Below, piece after piece: positions 51,969-56,199 of a stretch of 64,000 nucleotides of DNA. Within the stretch, counting starts at the first letter, position 1, and every line of letters starts with the position of its first letter. The notes under the pieces were generated by a model. It did not search any database. It was not told the DNA's origin and saw only the letters and a list, made by a program, of their open reading frames with translations. A program made the translations under genes and the position numbers. The stretch is from an uncultured virus (IMG/VR IMGVR_UViG_3300009507_000010) (taxonomy: Duplodnaviria > Heunggongvirae > Uroviricota > Caudoviricetes), in IMG/VR virus record IMGVR_UViG_3300009507_000010. One strand, 5' to 3'.

Positions 51969-53066
51969 ATGTTGGACGCATTAAAATCACTATTTGAAAA
52001 CAATGTTGTTTCCGAAAGCGTGAGAGCGGAAATTGAAGAAGCGTGGAATGCAAAAGTTTCAGAAGCAAAGCAAAGTGCAGTGTCAGAACTGCGTGAAGAG
52101 TTTGCTCAGAAATATGCGCATGACAAGAACGTTATGGTAGAAGCTATCGATAAGTTAGTTGAAGACCGTCTTCAAATTGAAATTTCAGAGTTTGCAGAAG
52201 ACCGCAAACAGTTAGCTGAAGCAAAAGCAAAGTATGCAGTAGCAATGCGTGAAAACGCAGATCTACTAAAAGGCTTTGTAGTAGAATCACTAACTAAAGA
52301 AGTTTCAGAGTTACACGAAGATCAGAAAGTTATGGCTGAAAAATATGGTCAACTTGAAGAATTTGTAGTAGAAGCTCTAGCTAAGGAAATTGCAGAATTT
52401 CATACAGACAAAAAAGATCTAGCAGAAACTAAAGTTGCATTGATAAGAGAAGCGAAGGCTCAGTTTGCAAAAGTAAAAACTACTTTTGTTAAAAAGAGTT
52501 CAGCTCTTGTTGCAGAAACAGTGGCAAAATCACTTAACAAAGAGATTAAAACACTGAAAGAAGATATCGATTCAGCACGTAGTAACGACTTCGGTCGTAA
52601 GATCTTTGAAGCGTTTGCATCAGAATACAATAACAGCTACCTTAATGAGAAATCAGAGGCAGCTAAACTTCTTAGAGTACTAAGTAAAAAAGACTTAGAG
52701 CTTGCAGAAGCGAAAGCAGCTATTGTAGAAAAAACTGCTTTGGTTGAAAGCAAACAGCGAGAAATTGCAGAAGCTAACAGCCAAATGATGCGAAAAGAAA
52801 AGCTTCAAGAACTCCTAGGCCCACTTAACGGTGAGCAAAAGGAAATTATGACAGACTTACTGGAATCAGTTCAGACTGCACGCCTAACAGCACAGTTTGA
52901 AAAGTACCTACCGGCGGTAATTGACGGTAAAACTCCAGCGAAGAAGAAGGCACTGACAGAAGGCAAAGAAATCACAGGCAACAAAGTTAATACTAGTATC
53001 AGTAGTGCAAAAGGCGAAACAGAAAATAATATTTTCGATATTCGTCGATTAGCAGGAATCAAATAA
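51969..53066 (+). CDS. gp22: Prohead scaffolding protein, gp22-like
   Basis: 365 aa coiled-coil, Glu/Lys/Ala-rich, many L-x-E sites, between protease and major capsid gene. Confidence 0.8.
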   Translation: MLDALKSLFENNVVSESVRAEIEEAWNAKVSEAKQSAVSELREEFAQKYAHDKNVMVEAIDKLVEDRLQIEISEFAEDRKQLAEAKAKYAVAMRENADLLKGFVVESLTKEVSELHEDQKVMAEKYGQLEEFVVEALAKEIAEFHTDKKDLAETKVALIREAKAQFAKVKTTFVKKSSALVAETVAKSLNKEIKTLKEDIDSARSNDFGRKIFEAFASEYNNSYLNEKSEAAKLLRVLSKKDLELAEAKAAIVEKTALVESKQREIAEANSQMMRKEKLQELLGPLNGEQKEIMTDLLESVQTARLTAQFEKYLPAVIDGKTPAKKKALTEGKEITGNKVNTSISSAKGETENNIFDIRRLAGIK

Positions 53067-53079
53067 GGAGAACATGAAA

Positions 53080-54246
53080 ATGTCAGAACTACTAGAAAGC
53101 CGCTGGTCGGACACTAAATCAGCACTGCTCGAAGGCCTAGAAGGCAATCGTAAGTCAGTAATGGCTGTTACACTTGAAAATACTCGCAAGTATTTGTCAG
53201 AGAGTGCTACAGCAGGTGCTACCTCCGCCGGTAACGTCGCAACTCTTAACAGAGTTATTTTACCCGTCATCAGACGTGTAATGCCAACAACAATCGCAAA
53301 CGAATTAGTTGGTGTTCAGCCTATGACAGGACCAGTGGGCCAAATCCACACACTAAGAGTACGCTATGCTGATTCAGCAACAGGTGTAACAGCAGGTGAA
53401 GAAGCTCTATCACCATTCAAGATTGCTCAAGGTTACTCAGGTAACGATGCAGCTGATCCAGATGGTAAAGCTAACAACACTGCAACACTTGAAGGTGCAG
53501 CAGGTAAGCGTATGTCAATTCAGATCTTGAAACAGACTGTTGAAGCAAAGTCACGCAAGCTATCAGCTCGCTGGACATTTGAAGCAGCTCAAGACGCACA
53601 GTCAATGCAAGGCATTGATGTCGAAGCTGAAATCATGGCAGCTCTTGCACAAGAGATTACAACTGAAATTGATCAGGAAATCTTAAACAGTCTACGTTCA
53701 TTAGCAGGAACAGCTTCAGAGACCTTTAACCAGGCTGCTGTAAGTGGTACTGCTACTTTCGTTGGTGACGAGCATGCTGCATTAGCTGTTCTAATCAACC
53801 GTCAGGCTAACAAAATCGCACAACGCACTCGTCGTGGTGCAGGTAACTTTGCTGTTGTATCGCCATTCGCGTTAACAGTATTGCAGTCTGCAACTACTTC
53901 TGCGTTTGCACGTACTACTGAAGGTACATTTGAAGCACCAACAAACACTAAGTTCGTTGGAACATTGAACAATGCAATGAAAGTATATGTTGATACATAC
54001 GCTTCTGATGCAACTGACGTTCTTGTTGGCTACAAAGGTTCTTCAGAATCTGATGCTGCTGCATTCTACTGCCCATACATCCCATTGATGTCAAGCGGTG
54101 TTGTACTAGATCCAGATACATTCGAGCCAGTAGTTAGCTTCATGACACGTTATGGTTATGTTGAACTAAACAACACTGCATCGTCACTAGGCAATGCAGC
54201 AGACTACGTCGAGCGTGTTGCGATTTCGAACGTAAGCTTCAGCTAA
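53080..54246 (+). CDS. gp23: Major capsid protein, T4 gp23-like
   Basis: LPVIRRVMP..IANELVGVQPMTGPVGQIHTLR, VEAKSRKLSARWTFEAAQD, AAFYCPYIPL, FMTRYG; ATG 53080 (alternative 53074). Confidence 0.96.
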   Translation: MSELLESRWSDTKSALLEGLEGNRKSVMAVTLENTRKYLSESATAGATSAGNVATLNRVILPVIRRVMPTTIANELVGVQPMTGPVGQIHTLRVRYADSATGVTAGEEALSPFKIAQGYSGNDAADPDGKANNTATLEGAAGKRMSIQILKQTVEAKSRKLSARWTFEAAQDAQSMQGIDVEAEIMAALAQEITTEIDQEILNSLRSLAGTASETFNQAAVSGTATFVGDEHAALAVLINRQANKIAQRTRRGAGNFAVVSPFALTVLQSATTSAFARTTEGTFEAPTNTKFVGTLNNAMKVYVDTYASDATDVLVGYKGSSESDAAAFYCPYIPLMSSGVVLDPDTFEPVVSFMTRYGYVELNNTASSLGNAADYVERVAISNVSFS

Positions 54247-54266
54247 GTTTTATTTTATATAAAACG

Positions 54267-54295
54267 AAAATAGCACCTTCGGGTGCTATTTTTTT
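54267..54295 (+). terminator. Rho-independent terminator after the major capsid gene
   Basis: AAAATAGCACC-TTCG-GGTGCTATTTT followed by further Ts. Confidence 0.9.
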
Positions 54296-54343
54296 GACTA
54301 AATTTTAATGATTTTACGGATGACTTTTAGGTACAAATATGTT

Positions 54344-54349
54344 TAAATA
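54344..54349 (+). promoter_or_regulatory. Putative late promoter for pqqA
   Basis: TAAATA between the capsid terminator and the pqqA RBS. Confidence 0.45.
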
Positions 54350-54392
54350 GTAATGTAGTAAATTTTTATTAACTTAATTTATGGAGTACACT

Positions 54393-54464
54393 ATGTGGAC
54401 AACACCGAAAGCAACAGAGATGAGATTCGGCTTCGAAGTAACGATGTATGTGATGAACAAGTAA
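54393..54464 (+). CDS. pqqA: Pyrroloquinoline quinone precursor peptide PqqA
   Basis: Manual translation MWTTPKATEMRFGFEVTMYVMNK (23 aa) with the W..P and GFEVTMY (E-x-x-x-Y) PqqA signature; GGAG RBS at 54383-54386. Confidence 0.93.
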   Translation: MWTTPKATEMRFGFEVTMYVMNK

Positions 54465-54525
54465 CAACATTACCAGAAGTAGATATGAGCAAGCTAATAG
54501 AAACATTAGATTGTGAGTAAAACAT

Positions 54526-54550
54526 AGCCCGCATATTAGCGGGCTTTTTT
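54526..54550 (+). terminator. Rho-independent terminator after pqqA
   Basis: AGCCCGC-ATATTA-GCGGGCT followed by TTTTT. Confidence 0.85.
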
Positions 54551-54581
54551 GTCTGCATATAATGCTTTCAGTCGATATGGA

Positions 54582-54671
54582 TAAATACTTTTGTTATAGA
54601 GATATCCTCTATTGCGAGGAATTATGCGGAAACCCGCCGCGTAGACCTAGAACGTCAAAAAGGAGAAAACA
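54582..54671 (+). promoter_or_regulatory. Late promoter plus structured 5' leader
   Basis: TAAATA 54582-54587; hairpins TCCTC/GAGGA, TATGCGG/CCGCGTA and GAC-CTAGAAC-GTC directly before the AGGAG RBS. Confidence 0.55.
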
Positions 54672-55088
54672 ATGGGACGTCCACTTAATAAAAGATACTT
54701 CGGAGAACCAACTGCCGGAGGAAACGAAATCAAAGTACAATTTCACAATGGAACAGCTAGTGTAAACGGCTGGATCGTTAAACAAAAAGGTTCAAAAAAA
54801 TTCTTATGCTCAGACGGAACTGTCGAAGCAACATGTGTACTAGTTGACAAAGCATCAGGCGCAGTAGCAGCTGGTGAAATGACTATTACAGTACTTGACG
54901 GTGCAACACCACGTCAGGTAACAAAGATTGCTGCACACAAAGTAACAATGGATAACGGTTTAACTATTAACTGGGACTTCACTGGAACTGGTGCAACTGT
55001 TGAAATGGAAGAAGCAGGCGATGATGCTGTTATCGACAATGTAGGCGTTGATGAAGACGACTTCGAAGGCGATGACCCAGCACCATAA
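54672..55088 (+). CDS. Hypothetical virion protein (possible head decoration)
   Basis: 138 aa, strong AAGGAG RBS, late promoter; MGRPLNKRYFG...GWIVKQKGSKKF. Confidence 0.6.
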   Translation: MGRPLNKRYFGEPTAGGNEIKVQFHNGTASVNGWIVKQKGSKKFLCSDGTVEATCVLVDKASGAVAAGEMTITVLDGATPRQVTKIAAHKVTMDNGLTINWDFTGTGATVEMEEAGDDAVIDNVGVDEDDFEGDDPAP

Positions 55089-55116
55089 GCTGATATTTTC
55101 AATATAAGGAATCATA

Positions 55117-56199
55117 ATGTTAAGACTAGTTAGTGTACCCGATGGCGACTATAAATTAAAAACTAAACCAGGTGGAAAGATCACACTCGATCCAGGCGCA
55201 TCTGGTAACGTAGTCGTTGATGGTAATTTAACTGTAACAGGTAACACTACTACAGTTAATTCTACTATCACAACGATTAAAGACCCTATAATAACTTTAA
55301 ACGAAGGTGATCCGGGCACACAAGGAGCTATAAGTTTTAGAAAAGCCGGTTTGCACATTAATAGAGGTAATGGCATTCCGGACACTTATATAGTCCACGA
55401 CGAAGACGTAACATTCACTGATCCTTATACTGGAGCACAATCATACGGTGTTATTAACTTTTTCCAAGAATCGTTTACAGGCGGCGGAACAAGAATAGAA
55501 ACTTCTGTTCCATTAAAGACACAAAGTATTGTTATTACCCCTGGAACTAAATTTTTATTCCAAGGTCTAGGTAGTACAGGTGTACTTGAAGTAGATAGTG
55601 CAGCATATGCAGAATCTATTGATCCTAGAGCATCGGGTTGGTTTACAAACGATGACGATAAAATACTTGCTAACAAAGGTTATGTAGATTGGAAAATTGT
55701 TGACTATCTAAACATAACTGGTGTACCTACAATTTCTAGTACGCTTGCTGATCCAATTACATTTGCACCAATCTCTACTACTGCGATAACAGTTAAACAA
55801 GAAGGTGTTAACTGGACGCAGAATAGTGAAATTGAAATGACTATCGATGATGTTTCTGCTTTTAGAGCATCGAATGAAGATGGTTTTGAATTTTACAATG
55901 CTATTGATGCACAAGGACTTAGAATAAAAGGTTACGATAGCGGAACATTAATCGAAAGTATGGGATCAAACTCGGATCTTACACTAACAGTTAGTGGTTC
56001 AGGAAGCATACGCATACTAGATGATTTATTAATGGTTAAGAATAGCAGCGAGCCTGCACTTCCTCCTCCGGGCACTGGAACTAAGTTATACGGTGGAGAA
56101 ATAGGCGGAGGCGGCACTGGCTTGTATGCTGCAACTGAAGAAGGCAGAGACGAGTTAGCAAGCAGACGAAAGGCAATCATTTACGGATTGTTGTTTTAA
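55117..56199 (+). CDS. Putative virion structural/fibre protein
   Basis: 360 aa; GNLTVTGNTTTVNS...IKDPIITLN fibre motif also present in the 1971-aa fibre. Confidence 0.6.
   Translation: MLRLVSVPDGDYKLKTKPGGKITLDPGASGNVVVDGNLTVTGNTTTVNSTITTIKDPIITLNEGDPGTQGAISFRKAGLHINRGNGIPDTYIVHDEDVTFTDPYTGAQSYGVINFFQESFTGGGTRIETSVPLKTQSIVITPGTKFLFQGLGSTGVLEVDSAAYAESIDPRASGWFTNDDDKILANKGYVDWKIVDYLNITGVPTISSTLADPITFAPISTTAITVKQEGVNWTQNSEIEMTIDDVSAFRASNEDGFEFYNAIDAQGLRIKGYDSGTLIESMGSNSDLTLTVSGSGSIRILDDLLMVKNSSEPALPPPGTGTKLYGGEIGGGGTGLYAATEEGRDELASRRKAIIYGLLF

Follow-up and report, generated by a model that had tools for sequence, protein, structure and literature searches.

The window analysed here is a 64,000-nucleotide stretch of DNA from an uncultured virus (IMG/VR record IMGVR_UViG_3300009507_000010) and belongs to a linear contig of 127,344 nt that is estimated to be ~36% complete. 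Directly behind the major capsid gene it carries a short unit built around pqqA, the gene for the PQQ precursor peptide, with the following features.

53074-54246, plus strand: major capsid protein gene, Gp23 family (PF07068, E = 7e-101)
54270-54295, plus strand as read from the sequence: terminator-like hairpin and T run of the capsid gene
54305-54321, plus strand: host-type "pqq box", a 17-bp imperfect palindrome and predicted operator of a host regulator
54344-54349, plus strand: TAAATA, a predicted T4-late-like promoter element
54383-54386, plus strand: Shine-Dalgarno sequence GGAG, 6 nt before the ATG and 8 nt before the GTG
54393-54464, plus strand: pqqA, 23 aa, E15-x3-Y19 core intact (TIGR02107, PF08042)
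54395-54520, plus strand: overlapping -1-frame ORF, 41 aa, starting at the GTG inside ATGTGG and ending in LIETLDCE
54489-54514, plus strand: weak RNA hairpin across the end of the -1-frame ORF
54526-54550, plus strand: intrinsic terminator of the pqqA cassette (terminator prediction and sequence)
54582-54674, plus strand: boundary with the next unit, TAAATA and an Rfam freshwater-2 RNA before a 138-aa gene

The 23-residue product of ORF 54393-54464, read from the sequence, is MWTTPKATEMRFGFEVTMYVMNK. A longer frame-0 version starting at 54381 (27 aa) was rejected because no Shine-Dalgarno sequence lies ahead of it. An earlier, sequence-only reading had described the cassette as a self-contained unit placed between the capsid terminator and the next late promoter element, and this description holds: TAAATA, GGAG, the pqqA ORF and the terminator are all in place, and the downstream unit opens with a TAAATA at 54582-54587. 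The same reading overlooked both the upstream box and the overlapping ORF. Terminator prediction flagged 54270-54295 on the minus strand only. Exact contigs from four RNA runs, compared over 53000-55200, cover 54140-54295, 54455-54661 and 54468-54777; none of those listed spans the body of pqqA, and the contigs show neither level nor strand.

The surroundings of the cassette are those of a large tailed phage, with portal, prohead protease and Gp23 capsid genes upstream of pqqA and a capsid protein that is 69-72% identical to those of jumbo phages of 285-470 kb, e.g. GAP32 and PA5oct. The gene sits between phage genes and is not host contamination, as expected of an auxiliary metabolic gene; the same locus was found on two other, near-identical contigs (L582 and L614). 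TAAATA is enriched upstream of structural genes, as T4-type late promoters are, and the copy at pqqA is a predicted promoter. Intergenic positions account for 23 of the 110 TAAATA sites (3.6 expected), 25 sites lie within 120 nt of a start in the sense orientation versus 9 antisense, and the element is retained upstream of pqqA in 26/27 related loci. A sigma-70 scan found no promoter at the pqqA locus. The freshwater-2 RNA of the next unit (54604-54674, plus strand) scores 52.1 bits against a gathering threshold of 49.9 and forms the leader of the 138-aa gene; a weaker match was seen in the relatives L043/L045.

The peptide scores 39.9 bits against TIGR02107 (cut-off 20) and 40.9 bits against PF08042 (cut-off 21.1), in each case over the full model, and retains the Trp-x2-Pro leader (W2, P5) as well as the Glu-x3-Tyr core (E15, Y19). 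Because both curated cut-offs are passed over the full model, a chance match is ruled out and the ORF is shown, at the level of sequence, to encode PqqA, as had been claimed. Its close resemblance to Methylophilaceae PqqA, noted in the earlier reading, is also borne out. The phage peptide is identical to the Methylopumilus universalis and Methylotenera copies at 22/23 residues, and the commonest best-matching bacterial peptide departs from it at position 6 only, where the phage Lys is rare (1/108 viral and 0/60 host alleles) and phages vary among themselves. The core pattern MRFGFEVTMY retrieved 126 bacterial loci from the first 5 of 64 database parts. The VMNK tail occurs in 67 bacterial loci, of which 59 bear the name Methylophilaceae or that of a member genus in their titles, six are named at a higher rank only and two come from one Acidovorax-labelled MAG. 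The copies of Methylophaga, Methylomonas and Burkholderiales have other tails. With this core and tail, the phage allele is shown to be of the Methylophilaceae type.

Compared with 108 distinct viral alleles, the phage gene gives a pN/pS of 0.11 (pS 0.79, pN 0.08; range 0.11-0.14), rising to ~0.29 when the codons compared are for the most part those that the search pattern does not cover. Divergence from host copies is strong at synonymous sites (pS 0.88, pN 0.07). The upstream DNA is 36% identical while pqqA is under purifying selection, and the nearest DNA neighbours of the phage gene are all viral.

No other pqq gene accompanies it, which agrees with the sequence-only reading for the window and extends it to the whole 127-kb contig. 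Searches there found no PqqC, PqqE or PQQ alcohol dehydrogenase, with M. universalis as a positive control, a Pfam scan of 83 other ORFs found no PqqD or further Pqq family, and PF08042 matched once in the 127,344 nt. Linked pqqB-E, as in a pqqABCDE operon, are missing; the neighbours are the capsid gene and an unnamed gene. A near-identical 160-kb contig has no dehydrogenase gene. The orphan state is general among pqqA-bearing viral records, 10 of which are at least 90% complete: PqqC was found in 0/50 and PqqE above the cut-off in 0/49, with a positive host control, and a PQQ dehydrogenase in 1/49. As a separate observation, a putatively viral stretch of a pqqA-bearing jumbo-phage fragment (G005; L833 5990-14787) encodes a PQQ methanol-type dehydrogenase and a formate dehydrogenase alpha subunit, together with a SoxYZ-like carrier and a CsgG-like gene, all four in a row. 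Among Methylophilaceae genomes, 59/61 have at least two pqqA matches, with a median of 4.

Viral copies proved common. Extrapolation from 4 of 64 parts of IMG/VR puts matches to the core pattern at ~2,300 stretches, and extrapolation from 2 of 64 parts puts matches to a generic PqqA pattern at ~3,900, both figures counting stretches and not species. All of the first 120 generic viral matches, which are not a random sample, were short PqqA-like ORFs; in equally non-random sets of first matches the strict Methylophilaceae type made up 63/120 viral versus 11/120 GTDB hits. Neighbours of viral pqqA come from phage modules unrelated to one another and include RecE/Erf, a different capsid family, T4-like RegA/clamp loader genes, terminase and ribonucleotide reductase. 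The position beside the capsid gene, stressed earlier, is real here and not essential elsewhere, most viral copies lying in other contexts: pqqA follows the capsid gene in 3/67 capsid relatives with at least 400 nt downstream (80 relatives in all), twice in inverted orientation. Other cargo was noted in this post-capsid slot, namely a glutamine riboswitch before pqqA in L057 (4237-4284) and, beside an inverted pqqA, a manA-like RNA below the gathering score (L043 4443-4643; L043/L045). A further 19/114 viral pqqA loci (e.g. L336, L345, L347 and L354) are of an alphaproteobacterial type ending YACAE[KILV]; similar pqqA is found in L512, a marine alphaproteobacterial genome that is rich in AT and has five pqqA copies and pqqC.

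The peptide matched 12 of 50,697 GenBank phage records. Nine are cultured Methylophilales/Methylophilaceae phages (MEP301, P19250A, Venkman, MEP401, MEP402 and four Melnitz records), and the remaining three comprise one uncultured phage and two weak Acinetobacter-phage matches at E 0.4. Five of the records carry no feature at the pqqA site, and the Melnitz record inspected has an overlapping CDS on the opposite strand. The matches take in each of the five marine OM43 phages that PMC10580990 lists as isolates, along with P19250A from freshwater, and the gene is never annotated as pqqA.

A Methylophilaceae (methylotroph) host is likely because of the allele type and the cultured pqqA phages with known hosts. 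Out of 20 runs, those containing half or more of the region's words were marine, seawater or estuarine, which would favour an OM43-like host over Methylopumilus; one run may be the source of the DNA. The earlier proposal of a methylotroph host resembling OM43 or Methylopumilus is thus likely in its first part, with the OM43-like option favoured in its second. Independent host markers were found neither among the scanned ORFs of the contig (83 in the Pfam scan, plus others) nor among 49 ORFs in the extra 37 kb of the 160-kb contig (G056).

Related loci share a motif upstream of TAAATA, and its reverse complement is the top 8-mer upstream of host pqqA (23/62). A 17-bp matrix trained on 72 host pqqA upstream regions reached the threshold of at least 10 bits in 68 of these training regions and in 58/105 viral upstream regions, with 0/105 viral downstream regions and 2/105 shuffles as controls. 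The site at 54305-54321 is the best on the whole 127-kb contig (15.6 bits), and the box recurs in 28/28 related loci as well as in P19250A, Melnitz and MEP301; it is not convincing in MEP402, and was found in 0/19 viral pqqA of the alphaproteobacterial type. M. universalis has the box ahead of each of its three pqqA copies and ahead of pqqB of the pqqBCDE operon, and it is not found ahead of the methanol dehydrogenase gene. As the box matches the motif upstream of host pqqA and pqqBCDE, phage pqqA is probably wired to the PQQ regulator of the host. It was also found upstream of 28/43 other bacterial pqqA, so the box marks a PQQ regulon and not a host family. The five exact sites in M. universalis lie ahead of pqqA (two), a rhodopsin gene, a cytochrome b561-like gene and one unclear locus; the rhodopsin and cytochrome genes, named by eye (L825 1501-1515; L828 1501-1515), hint at a wider energy regulon. 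By eye, the box resembles the core of the Fur consensus. It could be a repressor site; as an activator site of the host it would be oddly paired with the phage late element next to it.

The second overlooked feature is the -1 frame. A short motif behind the pqqA stop recurred in two relatives, and a search for it returned 53 viral loci, every one directly behind pqqA; 29/53 lie behind this capsid family, and two others inspected precede a single-strand binding protein gene. With a looser pattern, 53/69 matches were beside pqqA, the added 16 being unrelated ORF ends; the stricter pattern gave 4 presumably unrelated matches in GTDB. The frame that starts at the GTG is open in 27/28 distinct related loci versus 4/145 other viral and 4/130 bacterial pqqA. 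The 22 distinct spacers come in ten lengths, yet every one preserves the frame and is free of in-frame stops; in the other two frames 14 and 11 of them contain one. Within pqqA itself, T-ending synonymous codons are used at 2/93 sites where they would create a -1-frame stop versus 74/272 where they would not; Phe12, for instance, is TTT in 14/26 sequences and Phe14 in 1/26. As in an overprinted gene, the frame is open beyond chance and its indels preserve it, in loci that are related, so that these counts overstate independence. PqqA is conserved in the loci with the overlap.

When viral pqqA genes were chosen only for stop-free codons at four sites, 81/111 had a frame ending Asp-Cys-x-stop, in several tail families and with TAA, TAG or TGA as the stop. 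The ending was found in 0/125 frame-selected and 0/224 unselected bacterial copies; one bacterial-control locus with a closed frame has an Asp-Cys-x-type triplet. The tail is present in jumbo, T4-like and 55-kb phages, in 8/162 unselected viral loci and in 0/4 cultured loci. Four of those eight are closed upstream and have an ATG of their own, three by TAATG coupling, the frame being as short as 8 residues. The locus L627, with two in-frame stops and no ATG, may be decaying. Thirteen relatives of the -1-frame ORF have been gene-called (public protein records P0003-P0015), none with a Pfam domain, and such calls may hide pqqA in annotations. Family searches of the ORF in NCBIfam, Pfam, the ESM Atlas and GenBank phages gave no match.

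Several accounts of this frame were considered and set aside. Entry by programmed -1 frameshifting was rejected, as a slippery X XXY YYZ heptamer occurs in 0/26 coding sequences and -1-frame stops are avoided from codon 3 onward. Starting from the inner ATG at 54485, the ORF would be 11 aa long, and this shorter version is not general as the sole form: many relatives are without the inner ATG and the spacers stay in frame. The tail hairpin has 81% of cells paired versus 75% in shuffled sequences, 25 two-sided changes versus 13 and a mean z of -2.2 in 46 segments, with compensatory changes at the third positions of the Asp and Cys codons; RNAalifold returned no consensus fold for the tail. A purely RNA-based explanation was also rejected, as the hairpin is unable to explain stop avoidance inside pqqA.

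In E. coli reporters, AUGUG sites can start both frames (Kohl et al., PMC9841429), with clear dual use at spacings of 12/14 and mostly AUG with little GUG initiation at 13/15. By our own calculation the spacing at the phage site is 13/15. The site shares with those reporters an AUG and a GUG two bases apart behind one Shine-Dalgarno sequence; dual use was shown there in E. coli, and the passages on it describe no conserved product of this kind. Our best guess, held with as much doubt as belief, is that reading of the -1 frame would act in cis, affecting the hairpin and the 3' end of the mRNA. This role is preferred because the frame can do without its N-terminal part and its tail forms base pairs; a small peptide as its product is somewhat less probable.

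What is observed here is the gene with its family, its conservation and its lack of pqq partners, together with a box shared with hosts and a second frame that stays open. On this basis, the likely role of the stand-alone phage pqqA is to top up the precursor so that the host, probably a member of the Methylophilaceae, keeps making PQQ for methanol oxidation. The regulator of the host pqqA copies and of pqqBCDE would also recognise the phage box, and the TAAATA element would let the phage late machinery transcribe the unit. PQQ would arise through cross-linking of Glu15 to Tyr19 by PqqD/PqqE of the host, followed by the action of its proteases and of PqqB and PqqC (pathway as summarised in passages of PMC12997753 and PMC12124388). 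In this phage group, a minority of ribosomes would start at the GUG of AUGUG and read to the Asp-Cys-x stop just before the terminator. The peptide would be the only part worth carrying because it is consumed once per PQQ and the enzymes turn over, and the same logic would account for the median of four copies in the hosts. In a PQQ-producing Hyphomicrobium, expression of pqqA is highest when PQQ is synthesised fastest; the same source considers that PqqB and PqqC may be the steps that limit the rate, and in Methylovorus it found overexpression to bring only a limited gain (PMC9851590). A boost of host PQQ late in infection, as earlier proposed, would be plausible. A wider reading, which we entertain with slightly more doubt than belief, would make the unit a portable cassette, with a host operator and two AUGUG products (the precursor, and a phage-invented Asp-Cys-x micropeptide or a ribosome-controlled hairpin), passed among jumbo, T4-like and small phages, its 72-nt gene serving generally to mark phages whose hosts are aquatic bacteria that make PQQ.

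Other uses of the same gene can be envisaged. PQQ could be made as above and the benefit lie elsewhere, exported PQQ acting as an antioxidant or closing an importer that serves as phage receptor, which would exclude superinfection or lessen adsorption of progeny to debris. An E. coli phage that targets PqqU is indeed blocked by PQQ, and producers secrete the cofactor (PMC12124388); a dehydrogenase, moreover, occurs in 1/49 pqqA phage records. This is nevertheless unlikely, the gene being carried by unrelated types of phage that would hardly have one receptor in common. It is very unlikely in our view that the cassette is a decoy that lowers host PQQ-linked activity, either by drawing the host regulator to the box or by occupying PqqD/PqqE with the peptide. 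Both the leader and the Glu/Tyr core are undamaged and nearly the same as in the host, and the box is present in single copy, mostly 85-120 nt from the start, as befits a promoter element more than a sponge. In favour of a decoy are the conservation of the box, a regulator that may be of either sign, and the similar M. universalis sites before the rhodopsin and cytochrome b561-like genes. Recent, neutral acquisition of host DNA would fit the patchy distribution (3/67 capsid relatives, both orientations), yet is largely refuted and scarcely credible given the strong synonymous divergence from hosts (pS 0.88, pN 0.07), the viral nearest neighbours in DNA, the phage-type signals and the many lineages involved.

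Two further readings turn on the second frame or on other phage genes. Should the Asp-Cys-x ORF be the selected product, pqqA would mainly lend it a promoter and a start site, and the open frame in 27/28 loci, the avoidance of stop-creating codons (2/93 versus 74/272) and the 22/22 in-frame spacers would follow; we judge this very unlikely, because the ending is found in only 8/162 unselected and 0/4 cultured loci and PqqA is kept in all, including those that bear the overlap. It is also highly improbable that radical-SAM enzymes of the phage take the place of the host pathway and turn PqqA, or the Cys peptide that overlaps it, into some different product. A radical-SAM cluster with weak similarity to peptide maturases does lie ~20-30 kb away on the contig, and a connection between viral radical-SAM genes and PQQ was drawn by Coutinho et al. 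(PMC7678222). Against this, the contig has no PqqE match, no cluster protein reaches the cut-off of a named maturase family, with one just touching that of the generic SPASM domain, and a complete 55-kb phage with pqqA and the Asp-Cys-x frame has no radical-SAM gene. Precursor supply to the host pathway is the preferred reading.

Phage pqqA is not reported here for the first time. Coutinho et al. 2020 (PMC7678222) described PqqA in the Lake Baikal T4-like phage population VP_266, with a predicted Methylophilaceae host, and proposed that it boosts PQQ and methanol oxidation. VP_266 also encodes methanol dehydrogenase, whereas none was found on the partial genome studied here, and the passages on it give no prevalence, promoter box or second frame. 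The same source says that P19250A has none of these genes, in contrast to the unannotated pqqA found here. Viral pqqA, pqqD and pqqE are listed from reservoir sediments (PMC13188868), and a single mention of PqqA elsewhere concerns a host gene whose expression goes together with that of defence systems (PMC11118758). A term search of the available main texts on Melnitz, MEP401/402, MEP301 and Venkman returned no pqq gene, and PQQ once, as a medium additive. Searches of mostly open-access main texts found no report of the pqq box in phages, of the second frame or of the prevalence of phage pqqA, and both the box and the frame appear to be undescribed so far.

Phage pqqA is a known kind of auxiliary gene, and the captured box and overprinted frame make up the new part. 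With the orphan, multi-copy pqqA of Methylophilaceae it has in common 22/23 residues, the stand-alone unit and the upstream box; it differs in being viral, in the TAAATA element, in the -1 frame ending Asp-Cys-x and in the distance from box to start, ~88 nt in the phage versus mostly 110-145 nt in Methylophilaceae. Cyanophages with psbA likewise carry, out of a whole energy pathway of the host, just the component that turns over fast. The parallel would be one of principle, the pqqA product being a ribosomal peptide substrate and not a protein subunit. Although phage pqqA is known, records treat it as a one-off. The cultured pqqA phages are systems in which to test whether a cofactor can be raised by its consumable peptide alone, and because the allele type points to a host group, thousands of viral contigs could be matched to hosts with its help. 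In the shared box there is a handle on the uncharacterised PQQ regulator of Methylophilaceae, and the second frame is a small, testable example of how a captured host gene is overprinted.

Additional gene clusters were observed on the same contig (G000), outside the window. Positions 72884-85438 hold about nine radical-SAM-like ORFs, three with Pfam matches, together with cupin and 2OG-Fe(II) genes, and are preceded by two similar ORFs of 124 and 127 aa that belong to no family. The 160-kb contig contains a second radical-SAM cluster (L832 807-15907), with four members above the N_Twi_rSAM cut-off and FolE- and QueE-like genes nearby. At 122844-124300 of G000, adjacent DAHP-synthase-family and cytidylyltransferase genes, presumably KdsA/KdsB-like, lie amid glycosyl- and methyltransferase genes.
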